Below are positions 3,080 to 56,213 of a stretch of 64,000 bases of DNA, one piece after another. The stretch lies in assembly GCF_053078305.1 (NCBI RefSeq), contig NZ_CP166879.1, one strand, 5' to 3'. The number at the start of each line of letters is the position of its first letter. Position 1 is the first letter of the stretch. The notes below the pieces were generated by a model. It saw nothing but the letters and a program-made list of their open reading frames with translations, did no database searches and had not been told where the DNA came from. Both the position numbers and the translations under genes were made by a program.

Positions 3080-6192
<3,113 letters not shown>

Positions 6193-6198
6193 TAATAA

Positions 6199-7497
<1,299 letters not shown>

Positions 7498-7562
7498 GCA
7501 ATCAATGTCGGATGCGGCGCGAGCGCCTTATCCGACCAACATATCAGGACGGAATGATCGCA

Positions 7563-8174
7563 ATGAACATGTCGATGACAGAAAGAATAAAAGCAGGCAA
7601 GCTATTTACCGATATGTGCGAAGGCTTACCTGAAAAAAGACTTCGTGGGAAAACATTAATGTATGAGTTTAATCACTCGCATCCATCCGACGTTGAAAAA
7701 AGAGAAAGCCTGATTAAAGAAATGTTTGCCACGGTAGGGGAAAACGCCTGGGTAGAGCCCCCCGTCTATTTCTCTTACGGTTCCAACATCCATATAGGCC
7801 GCAATTTTTATGCAAATTTCAATTTAACCATTGTCGATGACTACACGGTAACGATCGGTGATAACGTACTGATTGCACCCAACGTTACTCTTTCCGTTAC
7901 GGGACACCCTGTACACCATGAATTGAGAAAAAACGGCGAGATGTACTCTTTTCCGATAACGATTGGCAATAATGTCTGGATTGGGAGTCATGTGGTCATT
8001 AATCCAGGCGTCACCATCGGGGATAATTCTGTTATTGGCGCGGGTAGTGTCGTCATAAAAGACATTCCACCAAACGTCGTGGCTGCTGGCGTTCCTTGCC
8101 GGGTTATTCGCGAAATAAACGACCGGGATAAGCAATATTATTTCAGAGATTACAAAGTTGAATCGTCAGTTTAA
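7563..8174 (+). CDS. lacA: Galactoside O-acetyltransferase
   Basis: MNMSMTERIKAGKLFTDMCEGLPEKRL...; the track ORF is extended upstream through a REP element, true start taken as ATG 7563. Confidence 0.95.
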   Translation: MNMSMTERIKAGKLFTDMCEGLPEKRLRGKTLMYEFNHSHPSDVEKRESLIKEMFATVGENAWVEPPVYFSYGSNIHIGRNFYANFNLTIVDDYTVTIGDNVLIAPNVTLSVTGHPVHHELRKNGEMYSFPITIGNNVWIGSHVVINPGVTIGDNSVIGAGSVVIKDIPPNVVAAGVPCRVIREINDRDKQYYFRDYKVESSV

Positions 8175-8276
8175 ATTATAAAAATTGCCTGATGCGCTTC
8201 GCTTATCAGGCCTACAAGTTCAGTGATCTACATTAGCCGCATCCGGCATGAACAAAGCGCAGGAACAAGCGTCGCA

Positions 8277-9458
8277 TCATGCCTCTTTGACCCACAGCTG
8301 CGGAAAACGTGCTGGTGCAAAACGCAGGGTTATGATCATCAGCCCAACGACGCACAGCGCATGAAATGCCCAGTCCATCAGGTAATTGCCGCTGATACTA
8401 CGCAGCACGCCAGAAAACCACGGGGCAAGCCCGGCGATGATAAAACCGATCCCCTGCATAAACGCCACCAGCTTGCCAGCAATAGCCGGTTGCACAGAGT
8501 GATCGAGCGCCAGCAGCAAACAGAGCGGAAATGCGCCGCCCAGACCTAAACCACACACCATCGCCCACAATACCGGCAATTGCAGCGGCAGCCAGATAAA
8601 GCCGCAGAAACCCACCAGTTGTAACGCCAGTGCCAACAGCAAAAGTTTGCGCCGATCCTGATGGCGAGCCATAGCAGGCATCAGCAAAGCTCCTGCGGCT
8701 TGCCCAAGCGTCATCAATGCCAGCAAGGAACCGCTGTACTGCGCGCTGGCACCAATCTCAATATAGAAAGCGGGTAACCAGGCAATCAGGCTGGCGTAAC
8801 CACCGTTAATCAGACCGAAGTATAGGCCCAGCGTCCAGGCGCGGGGAGTAAATACCACGCGAACCGGAGTGGTTGTTGTCTTGTGGGAAGAGGCGACCTC
8901 GCGGGTGCTTTGCCACCACCAGGCAAAGAGCGCAACAACGGCAGGCAGCGCCCACCAGGCGAGTGTTTGATACCAGGTTTCGCTATGTTGAACTAACCAG
9001 GGTGTCAGGGCGGCACCAAGTCCACCGCCGCCCATCAGAGCCGCGGACCACAGCCCCATCACCAGTGGCGTGCGCTGCTGAAACCGCCGTTTAATCACCG
9101 AAGGCATCACCGCCTGAATGATGCCGATCCCCACCCCACCGAGCAGTGCGCTGCTAAGCAGCAGCGCACTTTGGGGGTAAAGCTCACGCATCAATGCACC
9201 GACGGCAATCAGTAACAAACTGATGGCGACGCTGCGACGTTCGCTGACATGCTGATGAAGCCAGCTTCCGGCCAGCGCCAGCCCGCCCATGGTAACCACC
9301 GGCAGAGCGGTCAACAGGGCAGCCACGCTAAAGCTCATTCCGCTTGCCTGGCGCAATTGCGGTAGCAGTGGACCGACGGAGGTGAGCAGTGGTCGCATAT
9401 TAAGACCAATCAGCACCAGAACCAGCAGTATCGTGAACGTCTTTTGATGGTTGCGCAT
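8277..9458 (-). CDS. cynX: Cyanate transporter (MFS)
   Basis: Multi-pass membrane protein immediately downstream of cynS; matches remembered CynX; exact start among N-terminal Met codons uncertain. Confidence 0.9.
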   Translation of the reverse strand: MRNHQKTFTILLVLVLIGLNMRPLLTSVGPLLPQLRQASGMSFSVAALLTALPVVTMGGLALAGSWLHQHVSERRSVAISLLLIAVGALMRELYPQSALLLSSALLGGVGIGIIQAVMPSVIKRRFQQRTPLVMGLWSAALMGGGGLGAALTPWLVQHSETWYQTLAWWALPAVVALFAWWWQSTREVASSHKTTTTPVRVVFTPRAWTLGLYFGLINGGYASLIAWLPAFYIEIGASAQYSGSLLALMTLGQAAGALLMPAMARHQDRRKLLLLALALQLVGFCGFIWLPLQLPVLWAMVCGLGLGGAFPLCLLLALDHSVQPAIAGKLVAFMQGIGFIIAGLAPWFSGVLRSISGNYLMDWAFHALCVVGLMIITLRFAPARFPQLWVKEA

Positions 9459-9463
9459 GGCTG

Positions 9464-9952
<489 letters not shown>

Positions 9953-10624
9953 TTAAAAATAAGGTTGCGCTGCGGTCGGTTGGCGTAGCGGTATGGCACA
10001 AACGCGAGGATTAGCGGCCAGTGGCACAAACTGGCGGGTTGCGCCGTCAAACGCTGCGATGCTGCCGCTTTCAATGTCGTAGACCCAGCCGTGCAGGGCG
10101 ATCCGCCCCTCTTCGAGCGCCAGGCGCACCGATGGATGAGTTTGCAAATTAGCCAACTGAGCAATGACGTTTTCACGTACCATCGCCGCCGCTTTTGACG
10201 GTAAATCGGGATGCGGGCGCGCCTCATTAACGACGCGGGCTGAATCGGCATAACGCAGCCAGTGGGAGACGGCAGGCATATGGTCCATGCACTGACAGCT
10301 GGCAATGGCGGTCATTGCGCCACAGTTGGAATGACCGCAAATCACAATGTCAGATACCCGAAGCGCAGCGACGGCATACTCCACCGAAGCAGAAACGCCA
10401 CCGGGTTCAGGCCCGTAGGAAGGGACGATATTGCCTGCGTTGCGAATAACGAACAGATCGCCAGGCTCACGTTGCGTCACCAGCTCAGGGACCAGACGGC
10501 TGTCGGAGCAGGAGATAAAAAGGGTGCGCGGGCTTTGCTGTGTCGCCAACTGTTTAAATAAGGCTTCCCGCTTCGGAAATGCCTCGCGCTGGAATTTAAG
10601 GAATCCGTCAATAATCTCTTTCAC
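9953..10624 (-). CDS. cynT: Carbonic anhydrase (beta class)
   Basis: [47 protein letters not shown]...; beta-CA motifs CSDSR and HSNCG. Confidence 0.95.
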
Positions 10625-10733
10625 CGTTAACCTCTGTCTGTCTCTGGAATGAGAGGCAGACTACTCGCCCATTGCTATAAGGTAAAAGACTCATTTATGA
10701 TAAGTTCTATTGGATTTACTTATAGGTTGGCGA

Positions 10734-11633
10734 ATGCTCTCTCGACATATCAATTACTTTCTTGCCGTGGCTGAACATGGCAGCTTCACCCGCGCCGCCA
10801 GTGCGTTGCACGTCTCCCAGCCTGCGCTTTCCCAGCAGATTCGCCAGTTAGAGGAGAGTTTAGGCGTGCCGCTGTTTGACCGTAGCGGGCGAACGATTCG
10901 TCTCACTGATGCAGGAGAAGTCTGGCGACAGTACGCCAGCCGGGCGTTACAGGAACTGGGGGCGGGTAAACGGGCGATTCATGATGTTGCCGATCTGACG
11001 CGAGGATCGCTGCGTATCGCCGTCACCCCCACCTTTACGAGCTACTTTATCGGCCCCTTAATGGCGGATTTCTATGCGCGCTATCCCGGCATCACGCTCC
11101 AGCTACAGGAAATGTCGCAGGAGAAAATCGAGGATATGCTTTGCCGCGACGAGTTGGACGTTGGGATTGCCTTCGCGCCTGTGCATTCGCCGGAGCTGGA
11201 GGCAATTCCCTTACTAACAGAAAGTTTAGCGTTAGTCGTGGCGCAACATCATCCGCTGGCCGTCCATGAACAGGTGGCGTTGAGTCGCTTGCATGATGAA
11301 AAACTGGTCCTGCTCAGCGCGGAATTTGCCACCAGAGAGCAAATTGACCACTACTGCGAGAAAGCGGGGCTGCATCCACAGGTGGTCATTGAGGCGAACT
11401 CAATTAGCGCGGTTCTGGAGCTGATTCGCCGCACTTCCCTTTCCACATTGTTACCAGCAGCGATTGCCACACAACATGACGGGCTTAAAGCTATTTCTCT
11501 TGCCCCGCCACTACTGGAGAGAACGGCGGTTTTGTTGCGGCGGAAAAATAGCTGGCAGACTGCCGCCGCGAAGGCATTTTTGCAAATGGCGTTGGATAAA
11601 TGCGCGGTTGTTGGCGGAAATGAATCGCGGTAA
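10734..11633 (+). CDS. cynR: LysR-family regulator of the cyn operon
   Basis: [41 protein letters not shown]...; divergent from cynT; start taken at ATG 10734. Confidence 0.93.
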
Positions 11634-50814: not shown

Positions 50815-52503
50815 TTGCAATTTGACTACATCATTATTGGTGCCGGCTCAGCCGGCAACGTTCTCGCTACCCGTCTGACTGAAGATCCGAATACCTCCGT
50901 GCTGCTGCTTGAAGCGGGCGGCCCGGACTATCGCTTTGACTTCCGCACCCAGATGCCCGCTGCCCTGGCATTCCCGCTACAGGGTAAACGCTACAACTGG
51001 GCTTACGAGACGGAACCTGAACCGTTTATGAATAACCGTCGCATGGAGTGCGGACGCGGTAAAGGCCTGGGTGGATCGTCGCTGATCAACGGCATGTGCT
51101 ACATCCGTGGCAACGCGATGGATCTCGACAACTGGGCAAAAGAACCCGGTCTGGAGAACTGGAGCTATCTCGATTGCCTGCCCTACTACCGCAAGGCCGA
51201 GACCCGCGACGTGGGCGAGAACGACTACCACGGCGGCGACGGCCTGGTGAGCGTCACCACCTCCAAACCCGGCGTCAATCCGCTGTTTGAAGCGATGATT
51301 GAAGCGGGCGTGCAGGCGGGCTACCCGCGCACGGACGATCTCAACGGTTATCAGCAGGAAGGTTTTGGTCCGATGGATCGCACCGTCACGCCGCAGGGCC
51401 GTCGCGCCAGCACCGCGCGTGGCTATCTCGATCAGGCCAAATCGCGTCCTAACCTGACCATTCGTACTCACGCTATGACCGATCACATCATTTTTGACGG
51501 CAAACGCGCGGTGGGCGTCGAGTGGCAGGAAGGCGACAGCACCATTCCAACCCGCGCGACAGCGAATAAAGAGGTGCTGTTATGTGCAGGTGCGATCGCC
51601 TCTCCGCAGATCCTGCAACGTTCCGGCGTGGGTAGCGCTGAACTGCTGGCGGAGTTTGATATTCCGCTGGTGCATGATTTACCCGGCGTCGGCGAAAATC
51701 TTCAGGATCACCTGGAGATGTACCTGCAATATGAGTGCAAAGAACCGGTTTCCCTCTACCCTGCCCTGCAGTGGTGGAATCAGCCGAAAATCGGTGCGGA
51801 GTGGCTGTTTGGCGGCACCGGCGTTGGTGCCAGCAACCACTTTGAAGCAGGCGGATTTATTCGCAGCCGAGAGGAATTTGCGTGGCCGAATATTCAGTAC
51901 CATTTCCTGCCAGTAGCGATTAACTATAACGGCTCGAATGCAGTGAAAGAGCACGGCTTCCAGTGCCACGTCGGATCGATGCGCTCGCCAAGCCGTGGGC
52001 ATGTGCGGATTAAATCCCGCGACCCGCACCAGCATCCGGCGATTCTGTTTAACTACATGTCGCACGAGCAGGACTGGCAGGAGTTCCGCGACGCAATTCG
52101 CATCACCCGCGAGATCATGCATCAACCGGCGCTGGATCAGTATCGTGGCCGCGAAATCAGCCCCGGCACGGAATGTCAGACGGATGAGCAGCTCGATGAG
52201 TTCGTGCGTAATCACGCCGAAACCGCGTTTCATCCGTGCGGTACCTGCAAAATGGGCTACGACGAGATGTCCGTGGTTGACGGCGAAGGCCGCGTGCATG
52301 GGCTGGAAGGCCTGCGCGTGGTGGATGCGTCAATTATACCGCAGATTATCACCGGGAATTTGAACGCCACGACAATTATGATTGGCGAGAAAATAGCGGA
52401 CATGATTCGTGGACAGGAAGCGTTGCCGAGGAGCACGGCGGGATATTTTGTGGCAAATGGGATGCCGGTGAGAGCGAAAAAAATGAGTCGTGATTTGAAC
52501 TGA
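50815..52503 (+). CDS. betA: Choline dehydrogenase (GMC oxidoreductase)
   Basis: ...[23 protein letters not shown]...; AGGAGG at 50804-50809 positions a TTG codon at 50815; the in-frame ATG at 50770 lies inside betB. Confidence 0.93.
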
Positions 52504-53569
52504 CTCAAGAACCGATCAGATTGAGAGTTACCGTTCCAGGTATGGGGACAGAATCGTTATATAAAACATAGGGGTAACTCTCATGCTTCATAGTGACAAC
52601 CTCGCCAGCAAATTCTAAGCGGACTCGTTCAATCTGGCTGATGAAGGTGCTATGAATGCACTGATAAACCGCAGGTGAAATGCCACTCAGCTTAAGAATT
52701 ACGCCGCTAATGTTCCTTGCTATGGTTACCTGTTCATTCCCGCTCACGGTTAGCATGTACGAAAAGGGTTCTTGTAACGAGTACAAAAATAAGTCAGACC
52801 AAAACCACATGGAGCTTTAAACACGGTTCGTATAATTTATTAGCAGCGATTTATTTTTACTCTTCTTTAATTAATCATCATGCTTAAATATTTTTTAGCA
52901 CAAGATTATCGCTTCGCTAACATTTTATTTTACATTCATCATCAATTGATAATAAAAAATTGTTAATAATTTATTGCAAAAAACAAAAAGTGTTGGAATA
53001 CTCTCCATCAAATGAATACATAATAAACAAATTGAGATATACAAAAAGTAAAAACCATTTAAATGAATATTTTTAATTTATGAGCAGAACCCATTAACAA
53101 TGATTTACTAACCACCAGAAAAGTAAAGAACACCTTGCAATAATATGTATTTATAAATTCATATCATTGATATTAAACCAATCTTACTTTCTACCCTCCA
53201 ACTTTATGCATCAAAAAAAACAAAAGTAAAATCAATTAGATACACAACAAGGCAATCTCACAGGAAATGATGTTAAATATCTCAAAACTAATAAAAAATT
53301 ACTAAAATATTAGACGTAACACACATCCCACACGACCTGTCACTCATAGTTTTAATATTTATTTTTTCACATCATAGTAGATAAAAATACGCATTAAAAA
53401 TGACTTGTAGAAAAGCTGCACAATAAATAGTTCATATTTAGTCTGTTGCGTAGAACTACTATTCAAAAAATCTTATTAATGAGATAATGAGATTACATCG
53501 ATAACGTTCTGATGGCAGGCATACTTATCTGGGTGTGCCTCTCTTTTTTACAACTGTACACGGTGGCGT

Positions 53570-54133
53570 ATGACGAGAAAATATCTCACACAGGATGAAG
53601 TCTACAGGCTGATGGATGCAGCCCAGAGCATGTCCTTTCCTGAAAGAAATCGCTGTCTAATTATGATGGCTTTCATTCACGGTTTTAGGGCCAGTGAACT
53701 TCTTGATTTACGTTTATCCGATATTGATGCATCAGGAAAACAACTTAATATTCGGCGTATTAAAAATGGTTTCTCGACGACACATCCTCTTCTTCCTGAT
53801 GAATATAATTTGATCAAGTTGTGGCTTAAGCAGAGGAAGTTAATTGAAAACGGAGTTGAAGGAGACTGGCTTTTTCTCTCCCGGAAACGCCGCCCTATCA
53901 GCAGACAACATTTTTTTTCTATCATTCGTGAGGCTGGAAAACGTGCAGGATTAGCTGTAAAAGCACATCCTCATATGTTACGTCATGCCTGTGGTTTTGC
54001 TCTGGCTGACAATGGTGTCGATACCCGACTACTCCAGGATTATCTGGGTCATCGAAATATCCAGCATACTGTCAGATACACAGCCAGTAATGCTGCTCGA
54101 TTTAAAGGGGTGTGGAAAAAAAAACCTCGTTAA
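53570..54133 (+). CDS. FimB/FimE-family tyrosine site-specific recombinase
   Basis: 187 aa; strong similarity to remembered FimB/FimE blocks (FIHGFRASE, FSTTHPLL, HPHMLRHACGFALADNGVDTRLLQDYLGHRNIQHTVRYTASNAARF); preceded by ~760 bp of AT-rich ORF-free DNA. Possibly ipuA-like. Confidence 0.88.
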   Translation: MTRKYLTQDEVYRLMDAAQSMSFPERNRCLIMMAFIHGFRASELLDLRLSDIDASGKQLNIRRIKNGFSTTHPLLPDEYNLIKLWLKQRKLIENGVEGDWLFLSRKRRPISRQHFFSIIREAGKRAGLAVKAHPHMLRHACGFALADNGVDTRLLQDYLGHRNIQHTVRYTASNAARFKGVWKKKPR

Positions 54134-54145
54134 AACAGTACCTTC

Positions 54146-54423
54146 TGATTCAAAATGTCAGATTCCTACGTTTTCCTCAATTCTTCCATAAAAAAACAGC
54201 CCATTCAATTAAATAAAACACATAACATGTTGATATTTCTCGCTAAAGTAAAATAACCCCATGATTTGAAATGATTAACCACCAAGGTCATACCAGTGAT
54301 TAACTTTCGCTCATATTGTTAAATAACACAAAATTAAAAACAATAAAAATCAAACAAATTAGATTTATATTCCAAGAAAATTAAATATTCAGGCTATTAA
54401 ACCAAACCTGACATTTTGAATCA
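54146..54423. promoter_or_regulatory. Candidate invertible DNA switch (fimS-like) bounded by 16-bp perfect inverted repeats
   Basis: TGATTCAAAATGTCAG at 54146-54161 and its exact reverse complement CTGACATTTTGAATCA at 54408-54423, flanking 246 bp of AT-rich DNA between the recombinase and the LuxR-type regulator. Confidence 0.65.
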
Positions 54424-54462
54424 AAATGTCAGGTTTTGTAGCAATGGCGTGGACGAGTCTGA

Positions 54463-55257
54463 ATGAAGAAGCCTCTGGTTATTATCAGTGCCTGTCAGTT
54501 CACCAGGCTGGCACTGGAGTCTCTCATCCCAGCGGACAGGTATATCGTGCGGGTGTACAGCAACGTCACTACAGAGGTTGAATTCGTTTTAAAAACCTCC
54601 TGTGGCTACCTGTTGGCTGATATCCCTTCGCTTCCTTCGGGGGAGTTAGTTCTTCTGGCTTGTCTTGTCCGCTTGCGGAGTGATGCCGGGCAATGGCAGG
54701 TCTGCCTGACCGGTGACTCCGACTGGTCCGATAATGCTCCTGCTGCAAGTCTGTATAACGGCTTCCCACATATCGGCACCATGCTGACAGCGAGTCGTTA
54801 TCAGAATCAAATTATCCGCTGGTTACTACGTCCTTTACCCGGCGATATGAGTGATTTCTGGCTCCTGACTGCACGGGAGTTAAGCGTGCTTAAGATTCTG
54901 ATGCAGGGCATGAGTTTCAGTGAGATTGCCCGTTATGAACAACGCAGTTCAAAGACCCTGCATGCGATTGCCACACGGGCTTTAATGAAACTTGGACTGG
55001 GAACACTGAGCGATTTCAGGCTGCTCTATACGGGATGCGGTGACAGCAGAGTGAAACGGAATATACGGCTACATGCAAAATATATCGGACAACATTCCGC
55101 TCATCGACTCACTCAGTATGTGCAGAACATGGTATCCGGAATCCTTTATCCAGAGAAAGTTGCCGTTGGTGAATCAATAAATTCTGACGCCATTTCCGGA
55201 AAAGTACTTTCCGGACAAAGAAAAAATATATCTAAAAAAAGACCAGGATTGTTATGA
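54463..55257 (+). CDS. LuxR-type HTH transcriptional regulator
   Basis: 264 aa; HTH LTARELSVLKILMQGMSFSEIARYEQRSSKTLHAIATRALMKLG; starts 40 bp after the right inverted repeat. Possibly ipuR-like. Confidence 0.8.
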   Translation: MKKPLVIISACQFTRLALESLIPADRYIVRVYSNVTTEVEFVLKTSCGYLLADIPSLPSGELVLLACLVRLRSDAGQWQVCLTGDSDWSDNAPAASLYNGFPHIGTMLTASRYQNQIIRWLLRPLPGDMSDFWLLTARELSVLKILMQGMSFSEIARYEQRSSKTLHAIATRALMKLGLGTLSDFRLLYTGCGDSRVKRNIRLHAKYIGQHSAHRLTQYVQNMVSGILYPEKVAVGESINSDAISGKVLSGQRKNISKKRPGLL

Positions 55258-55410
55258 CACAGCAGCGTTGTTACTACCACCCACTGCGGCGCATACGGAC
55301 TCGCTACAGTGTAGGAGCCAAAATATTTCTACTGTTCTGGGCTGCAGGATTGGGAGGCACGCTGTACAGCCTGTACAGCGTGCTGGCGTACTGACATCTG
55401 TGAGGGAAGG

Positions 55411-56172
55411 ATGCGTTTCGTTCTTTTCTGTCCCTCAGGAATTGTACCAGCGCAGTTCGCAGCTCTATCAACCGGTTCTGTCGGCAATGTTACCTGCATC
55501 AGAACAGAAGAGGAGTTACGCAATAAATTGCGGCACAGGCCACAGAATGTCGTGATATCGGCAGGGCGACCTGCCGAATGCGCTGAAATGTGGTTCCGAT
55601 TTTATCGGGATCACTCATTCGTGGTGGTGTTGTGCGTCGCGCCCTTTTTTCTGCCACCGGATGTGAGTATTTCTGGCGTTCTCAAAAACCTGAGGTTACT
55701 GAAACCAGGAATGTCAGTAGAGCATGTCATCAGTATTGCAAATACCTCTGGTGGGTTTTCAGGGCTGAAACATGCAGAAATTTTGCCAGTTATGGACAGT
55801 TACTCTGTCTTTATGAAAGAGGTGAATAACCGCACAAAGACAATCGTCATGTCAGAACGCTTCCCGGAAAAGCAAAAGAAGGTGTTGTCGTTGCTTCTTG
55901 CCGGACACAGCTGGGAATACAGTGCGCAGTTTCTCAAAACGGGGATAAGACAGATATGGCTTGCCGAGCAGTCGCTAAAAAAGCGTTGGGGAATACCGGA
56001 CAGCATGTCATTGCGGGAAGCCCTGCTGCTGAGCAGCAATAAATTTCACGGTGATGGAAATGCATTGGAAAAAACGAATGCCATGACATTGCGTGAAAAC
56101 GGAAATACCAACAGGTATTCCGTGGTGGTAAATGCAGGGACGCAGGTTTTATCTCTGCATAAATATAAATAA
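55411..56172 (+). CDS. Second, divergent LuxR-like regulator
   Basis: 253 aa; degenerate LuxR-type HTH near the C-terminus (EKQKKVLSLLLAGHSWEYSAQFLKTGIRQIWLAEQSLKKRWGIP); no intact response-regulator phosphoacceptor signature recognised. Confidence 0.6.
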   Translation: MRFVLFCPSGIVPAQFAALSTGSVGNVTCIRTEEELRNKLRHRPQNVVISAGRPAECAEMWFRFYRDHSFVVVLCVAPFFLPPDVSISGVLKNLRLLKPGMSVEHVISIANTSGGFSGLKHAEILPVMDSYSVFMKEVNNRTKTIVMSERFPEKQKKVLSLLLAGHSWEYSAQFLKTGIRQIWLAEQSLKKRWGIPDSMSLREALLLSSNKFHGDGNALEKTNAMTLRENGNTNRYSVVVNAGTQVLSLHKYK

Positions 56173-56213
56173 GTGGGAAATTGAAATTAGTTACCAGAAT
56201 GGAGAATTTCTTC

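Follow-up and report, generated by a model that had tools for sequence, protein, structure and literature searches.

Is the short, repeat-bounded segment that lies between a recombinase gene and a regulator gene in this DNA an invertible promoter switch, and if so, which switch is it and in which state was it captured? We examined the segment within the window, that is, the entire 64,000-nucleotide stretch that was analysed. We conclude, with a probability of roughly 0.95, that it is hyxS, the switch that is inverted by IpbA/FimX and controls hyxR; it belongs to the pathogenicity island PAI-X, located between betA and ykgH. Because hyxS has been published and experimentally characterised, the element is already known; its recognition at this locus is a correct rediscovery of a described phase-variation switch and provides no new biology. 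The practical value lies in annotation, as the RefSeq records annotate ipbA and hyxR only and not the switch, and the orientation of the switch indicates the likely expression of hyxRAB in a given assembly. To the published picture we make small additions: a census of orientations, a lineage frozen by ISEc8, a promoter-like footprint whose conservation favours an OFF state, and a central GGT-N3-ACCAG motif.

The genes concerned have a varied record. The literature connects hyxRAB with nitrosative stress and macrophage survival (phenotypes summarised in PMC8777976), with UpaB adhesion, and with O-antigen chain length and serum resistance, in which hyxR and hyxA of the fimX and hyxRAB island act (PMC3789825). 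There is also a link with transient phage resistance, inversion at hyxR being among the changes of transiently phage-resistant clones (PMC12361893). Regulation of hyxR through bidirectional inversion is summarised together with the phenotypes in PMC3789825 and PMC8777976.

The repeat pair and its neighbouring genes

The genes and repeats of the locus are as follows.

53570 to 54133, plus strand: ipbA (= fimX = hbiF), tyrosine-type DNA invertase of 187 aa, NF007370
54146 to 54161, plus strand: IRL, left inverted repeat, TGATTCAAAATGTCAG
54162 to 54407, no strand: invertible interior of hyxS, 246 bp, 26.8% GC
54408 to 54423, plus strand: IRR, right inverted repeat, CTGACATTTTGAATCA
54463 to 55257, plus strand: hyxR, encoding a 264-aa regulator of the LuxR type; residues 135-181 match Pfam GerE (E = 3.9e-6)
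55411 to 56172, plus strand: hyxA, product of 253 aa without a known domain; 97-98% identity to the UTI89 and CFT073 proteins
56181 to 58511, plus strand: hyxB (= upaB), autotransporter of 776 aa, TIGR01414 barrel (E = 1.9e-68)

The first-pass annotation of this DNA had described a perfect 16-bp inverted repeat pair around an AT-rich interior of 246 bp, set between a FimB/FimE-like recombinase and a LuxR-type regulator heading a cluster with an autotransporter. Each of these elements was recovered. The right repeat is the exact reverse complement of the left one; the interior has 26.8% GC, compared with 50.8% for the window; and with both repeats counted the element measures 278 bp. Both repeats lie outside coding sequence, with 12 bases between the end of the ipbA stop codon (54133) and the left repeat and 39 bases from the right repeat to the hyxR ATG (54463). 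The ipbA product scored 251.6 bits against the NCBIfam model NF007370 (tyrosine-type DNA invertase), for which the cutoff is 221. The regulator carries a GerE/LuxR helix-turn-helix domain, and the 776-aa protein further downstream has an autotransporter barrel. The ORF ending at 52503 encodes the choline dehydrogenase BetA, and a search of NCBIfam returned no family for HyxR, HyxA or YkgH. This is the architecture of fim-type promoter inversion, in which a small FimB/FimE-family invertase is encoded beside a repeat-bounded segment of ~250-320 bp upstream of the regulated genes, and hyxR is the first gene under control of the switch.

Short repeats are abundant in AT-rich intergenic DNA, and the pair might therefore be static, whether as a product of chance, a regulator palindrome or a long hairpin, with an interior that never inverts. 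Among perfect inverted repeats of at least 14 nt with arms 50-2000 bp apart, the hyxS pair stands alone in the 64-kb window. When the whole window was shuffled, a 16-nt inverted-repeat pair arose anywhere in 9 of 200 shuffles. We also shuffled the intergenic region (329 bp) 1000 times with its dinucleotide composition preserved and looked for perfect inverted repeats whose arms were separated by 100 bp or more; the longest was 13 nt, seen once, and 16 nt was never reached. The 16-bp pair is thus far beyond chance, and on the evidence of the shuffles we rejected a chance repeat.

Some features of the surroundings deserve mention. A scan of 52400-55400 against Rfam at E <= 1 gave no match. The gap of ~760 bp between betA and ipbA (52811-53569) is very AT-rich (25-31% GC) and holds no convincing ORF; it probably contains the promoter of ipbA and marks where the island begins on the left. 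Imperfect A-rich repeats in direct orientation, several in number, are common to this gap and the switch interior, for example 53210-53241 and 54333-54364 (78%). The hyxB ORF opens with a TTG, whereas annotations of other strains place the start ~11-13 codons further downstream, and the true start probably lies ~30-40 nt downstream of this TTG.

Identity with hyxS

Megablast with 53500-55300 matched 1,903 of 5,426 complete E. coli genomes at 95-99% identity. The matches were uniformly annotated as ipbA (tyrosine-type DNA invertase IpbA) and hyxR (LuxR family transcriptional regulator HyxR), and a RefSeq note gives HbiF and FimX as other names of IpbA. The gene order betA-ipbA-hyxR-hyxA-hyxB-ykgH is the same in the window as in the strains SE15, UTI89 and CFT073. 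IpbA of the window is identical to IpbA/FimX of UTI89 and CFT073 over all 187 of 187 residues (100%), and HyxR is 98.5% identical to its counterparts in these two strains. Across the 278-bp element we counted five differences from UTI89 (273/278 identical) and seven from CFT073 (271/278). The window thus shares with the UTI89 and CFT073 assemblies the 16-bp repeats, the junctions, the site between ipbA/fimX and hyxR near betA, and the orientation. It departs from them in the 5-7 point differences, which are all interior, in an ipbA gene that ends in A9 and not A8G, and in a HyxB passenger that is 93% identical.

Two of these departures can be specified further. Of the island's genes, hyxB (upaB) has diverged furthest: its product is 93% identical to HyxB of both UTI89 and CFT073, compared with 97-100% for its neighbours. 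The homopolymer near the 3' end of ipbA (54116-54124) is A9 in this DNA, where most other strains have A8G, and the change is silent. In APEC O18 (ipbA at 1045-1656 of the extract) an extra G just ahead of the A-run shifts the ipbA frame; as annotated, that gene has 612 nt compared with 564 and continues through the left repeat into the switch, and the last residues of its product are altered.

The experimental record attaches directly to this element. hyxS was characterised in UTI89 and CFT073 (Bateman & Seed 2012, Mol Microbiol 83:908, as described in PMC6083910 and PMC6458436). It is a phase-variable element adjoining fimX in both strains, its inversion regulates hyxR, and it can be inverted by FimX only (PMC6083910). 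Whole-genome sequencing of UTI89 and CFT073 detected the inversion of hyxS only under fimX overexpression (PMC6458436). The lengths of the inverted repeats also distinguish related switches, with 16 bp reported for hyxS, whereas those of fimS measure 9 bp and those of ipuS 7 bp (PMC6083910).

A different identity had been proposed at first, namely that the locus resembled the ipuA-ipuS-ipuR-upaE module of CFT073. The two share the type of device and the logic of gene order, as the ipu module likewise combines a recombinase, an invertible segment of ~260-280 bp, a LuxR-type regulator and an autotransporter, and FimX also inverts ipuS (PMC6083910). They have a half-site motif in common as well, ACATTTTGA.TCAAAATGT in hyxS and ACATTTTGACCCAAAATGT in ipuS (general form ACATTTTG...CAAAATGT), with similar cores, TGACCCA in ipuS and TGATTCA in hyxS. 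We located the CFT073 ipu locus from the island coordinates given in PMC7545054; a search for it with a upaE primer of 35 nt had produced no match. Direct comparison with this locus showed that its proteins are only paralogous. The recombinase of the window is 53% identical to IpuA and 47.5% to IpuB, compared with 100% to CFT073 IpbA; HyxR and IpuR are 26% identical over 106 aa, and between UpaE and HyxB no significant similarity was seen. The ipu module has two recombinase genes, ipuA and ipuB, which flank ipuS, and resides on the argW island near dsdCXA, unlike the single recombinase gene near betA in the window. Its 7-bp repeats contrast with the 16-bp, noncoding repeats of the window, and because the distal one lies within ipuA, inversion of ipuS truncates IpuA. 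The interiors of the two switches cannot be aligned, and alignment of the segment with CFT073 ipuS, which had been suggested as a check, yielded common DNA of only ~19 bp, at the half-site. We therefore rejected the identity with ipuS, to which we assign next to no probability, and regard the ipu module as a paralogue at another locus; the window carries fimX/ipbA-hyxS-hyxRAB.

The archetype of such devices, fimS, is likewise a promoter-bearing segment of ~300 bp inverted by adjacently encoded small tyrosine recombinases, FimB and FimE, and FimX/IpbA acts on it too (PMC6083910, PMC6458436). It differs from hyxS in its 9-bp repeats, its length of 314 bp, and its position between fimE and fimA, where it controls fimA (PMC11294581). 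The literature describes fimS and hyxS as poorly similar in sequence, and hyxS is not inverted by FimB or FimE (PMC6083910, PMC6458436).

As to distribution, the island is apparently exclusive to E. coli (PMC3789825). When one representative genome per species was searched for 13-nt repeat cores at the spacing of hyxS, none was found. This result is consistent with a hyxS restricted to a subset of E. coli and is silent on diverged relatives.

Both orientations in finished genomes

If the element is a switch, assemblies might preserve it in either orientation. We searched the 5,426 complete E. coli genomes with an artificial construct in which the interior was inverted between the repeats. Colinear matches were obtained in 16 genomes for the inverted construct and in 1,780 for the window orientation, so that ~99% of the assemblies have the orientation of the window and ~1% the inverted one. 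The two junction types expected after the left repeat are …CAGATTCC… and …CAGGTTTGG…. Three of the 16 inverted genomes were inspected (YF-1, APEC O18 and Eco_24-2013). In all three the interior was exactly reverse-complemented while the flanks and both repeats were unchanged, which places the breakpoints within the 16-bp repeats. Both orientations therefore exist in nature. The earlier claim of a fim-type invertible switch is borne out by finished E. coli assemblies in which precisely the 246 bp between the repeats are inverted. For a static repeat, the 16 finished genomes with exact inversion and junctions inside the repeats, together with the experimental inversion published for elements 97-98% identical to this one (PMC6083910, PMC6458436), leave a probability close to nil.

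A recombinase fragment only is annotated in 6 of the 16 inverted genomes. In both of the fragment genomes that we inspected, ipbA was truncated by an insertion of ISEc8, an element of the IS66 family. This sub-lineage, from dogs and humans and 95-96% identical, retains only the last 114 nt of ipbA; the truncated loci are found in NZ_CM176494.1 (extract 1-1605) and NZ_AP027899.1 (extract 1-2605), where the window has the intact counterpart at 53570-54133. Since ISEc8 truncates ipbA, hyxS of the sub-lineage is presumably frozen in the minority orientation, and hyxRAB may be expressed constitutively there. The census, including the sub-lineage with its destroyed ipbA, may serve others who work on this switch.

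Such natural frozen variants raise the possibility that the switch is present yet immobile in the strain of the window as well. The window has perfect repeats and a full-length ipbA, and the protein that this gene encodes matches FimX of UTI89 and CFT073, which is active in experiments, at 100% identity. We thus consider a frozen switch in this strain very unlikely and a working hyxS the preferred reading.

FimX-dependent bidirectional inversion and control of hyxR have been published for near-identical elements (PMC6083910, PMC6458436, PMC3789825). In the mechanism that we propose for the window, IpbA (FimX/HbiF), the tyrosine recombinase encoded alongside, would bind both recombination sites and exchange strands within the 16-bp inverted repeats, so that the 246-bp interior flips. 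The interior would carry a promoter that in one orientation drives transcription across the right repeat into hyxR and probably further into hyxA and hyxB. In the opposite orientation the promoter would face the 3' end of ipbA, and expression of hyxR would be low. The expected outcome is that a LuxR-type regulator and an autotransporter vary in phase between ON and OFF, heritably and reversibly.

Recombination sites, promoter candidate and probable state

Three further features come from within the element and at its right end.

54180 to 54208, minus strand: candidate switch promoter, -35 TTGAAT (54208-54203), 17-nt spacer, extended -10 TGgAAGAAT (54185-54180)
54286 to 54296, no strand: central motif GGTCATACCAG (GGT-N3-ACCAG), columns conserved across the compared switches
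54421 to 54436, plus strand: outer half-site at the right-hand recombination site, repeating the IRL arm in direct orientation (TCAAAATGTCAGG...)

Two relatives helped in reading these features. A protein search placed the nearest IpbA relatives beyond the island in a few E. coli assemblies, which encode an 80% identical invertase, and in Salmonella, where STM0716 is 71-72% identical. The Salmonella enzyme belongs to the T1-antigen switch, which like hyxS lies just downstream of the recombinase stop, has the same repeat core as hyxS, TGATTCAAAA, and is followed by a HyxA homologue, STM0718 (38%). It differs in its repeats of 9-10 bp, its interior of ~269 bp and the lack of a HyxR homologue, and it controls glycosyltransferase genes for surface polysaccharide, not an autotransporter cluster.

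The invertase with 80% identity belongs to a parallel hyx-like module in GCA_050854415.1, GCA_028909615.1 and GCA_028909715.1 (extracts ~6001-11300), all labelled E. coli. Its switch has 18-bp repeats, TGGTTCAAAATGTCAGAT, and strains differ in it by an insertion/deletion of 41 bp. The genes that follow encode proteins resembling HyxR (52%) and HyxA (45%) and an autotransporter of 900 aa. The module adjoins acetolactate decarboxylase and synthase genes, not betA, and in the literature on these switches we found no name for it. We refer to this diverged relative of hyxS as the sister switch.

From these comparisons we infer the anatomy of the recombination sites. The ipuS repeat TGACCCA aligns with TGATTCA of hyxS, the 10-bp Salmonella repeat TGATTCAAAA is common to hyxS, and the sister switch has TGGTTCAAAATGTCAGAT; on this ground the first 7 nt of IRL, TGATTCA, would be the crossover core and its last 9 nt, AAATGTCAG, the predicted inner recombinase-binding arm. 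Each site would then consist of a 7-bp crossover core between arms of the AAATGTCAG type, a layout that fits a tyrosine recombinase. At the right end a third copy of the half-site, TCAAAATGTCAG at 54421-54432, which had escaped the first-pass annotation, overlaps the right repeat; this end is consequently a near-perfect palindrome (54401-54439, 19-nt arms, 95%). The right site has two good arms; at the left site the outer counterpart (54135-54145) is degenerate. The 19+1+19 palindrome exists at the right site only in the present orientation; upon inversion the extended arm (GGTTTGG) comes to lie at the left site. By analogy with the flanking sequence that matters for FimE at fimS, such an asymmetry might favour one direction of switching.

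In which state, then, is the switch of the window? The first-pass annotation had found the promoter hexamers ambiguous and the orientation impossible to call. A consensus scan of 54050-54550 for promoters and terminators found no site on either strand at a threshold of 9 of 12. A relaxed scan gave a single candidate on the minus strand, which matches 8 of 12 consensus positions, has an extended -10, and points toward ipbA and away from hyxR. In the GC-richer sister switch the only candidate, TTGAAC/17/TGaAAGAAT, has an identical position and strand, and the Salmonella T1 switch has a weaker form there, TTGTGT/17/TGaGAGGAT, likewise on that strand. The interiors support the same alignment of orientations. 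Comparison of hyxS with the sister switch gave z = 5.9 in the same orientation and 2.6 when one was reversed; for Salmonella and the sister switch the values were 4.1 and 0.4. The direct signal between hyxS and Salmonella was weak (z = 1.9 and 0.4), their interiors being weakly alignable in the same orientation, with the promoter-like block and GGT-N3-ACCAG conserved.

The comparative evidence points to OFF. The Salmonella T1 switch is strongly biased in GenBank to one orientation, and this predominant orientation is experimentally OFF (PMC11294581). CFT073 shares the orientation of the window, and its recombinase-null derivatives have been reported as 'hyxS locked OFF' (PMC6083910). Because the conserved candidate points away from hyxR, because the orientation matches that of the OFF Salmonella switch, and because the CFT073 derivatives were reported as OFF, we infer that the window was probably captured in the OFF state, with the candidate promoter directed toward ipbA. 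After inversion this promoter would lie just inside the right repeat and read into hyxR, with a leader of ~65-70 nt.

The opposite assignment has its own candidates. The relaxed scan also found five weak sigma-70-like sites on the plus strand, each matching 8 of 12 positions, in the A-rich right half of the interior (54316-54371), that is, 50-110 bp upstream of the right repeat; if one of them were the functional promoter, it would read straight into hyxR and the window would be ON. Abstract-level accounts speak of 'high' and 'low' HyxR states and leave the orientation of the reference genomes unstated. The plus-strand candidates are, however, of low complexity and unconserved in the sister switches, unlike the minus-strand candidate. 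An ON window would also be at odds with the 99% of assemblies, CFT073 among them, that share its orientation, given the hyxS OFF state of the CFT073 recombinase-null derivatives (PMC6083910), and with the GenBank-predominant Salmonella orientation, experimentally OFF (PMC11294581), that aligns with it. We regard the ON assignment as unlikely and retain OFF as the probable state.

If the window is OFF, its promoter might fire through the left repeat and produce antisense transcription into the 3' end of ipbA. Together with the orientation-specific palindrome, this could feed back on the level of the recombinase or on the affinity of its sites, a speculative and rather unlikely idea. To our knowledge, orientational feedback has not been described at hyxS; at fimS, orientational control of fimE is a known directional bias. 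If true, the feedback would build a directional bias into hyxS and could explain why 99% of the assemblies are found in one orientation.

Finally, the middle of the interior carries a motif of its own. The columns of GGT-N3-ACCAG are common to the switches of the window, UTI89, the variant E. coli and Salmonella, and in two of these the motif is palindromic. It may be a binding site for an accessory protein.
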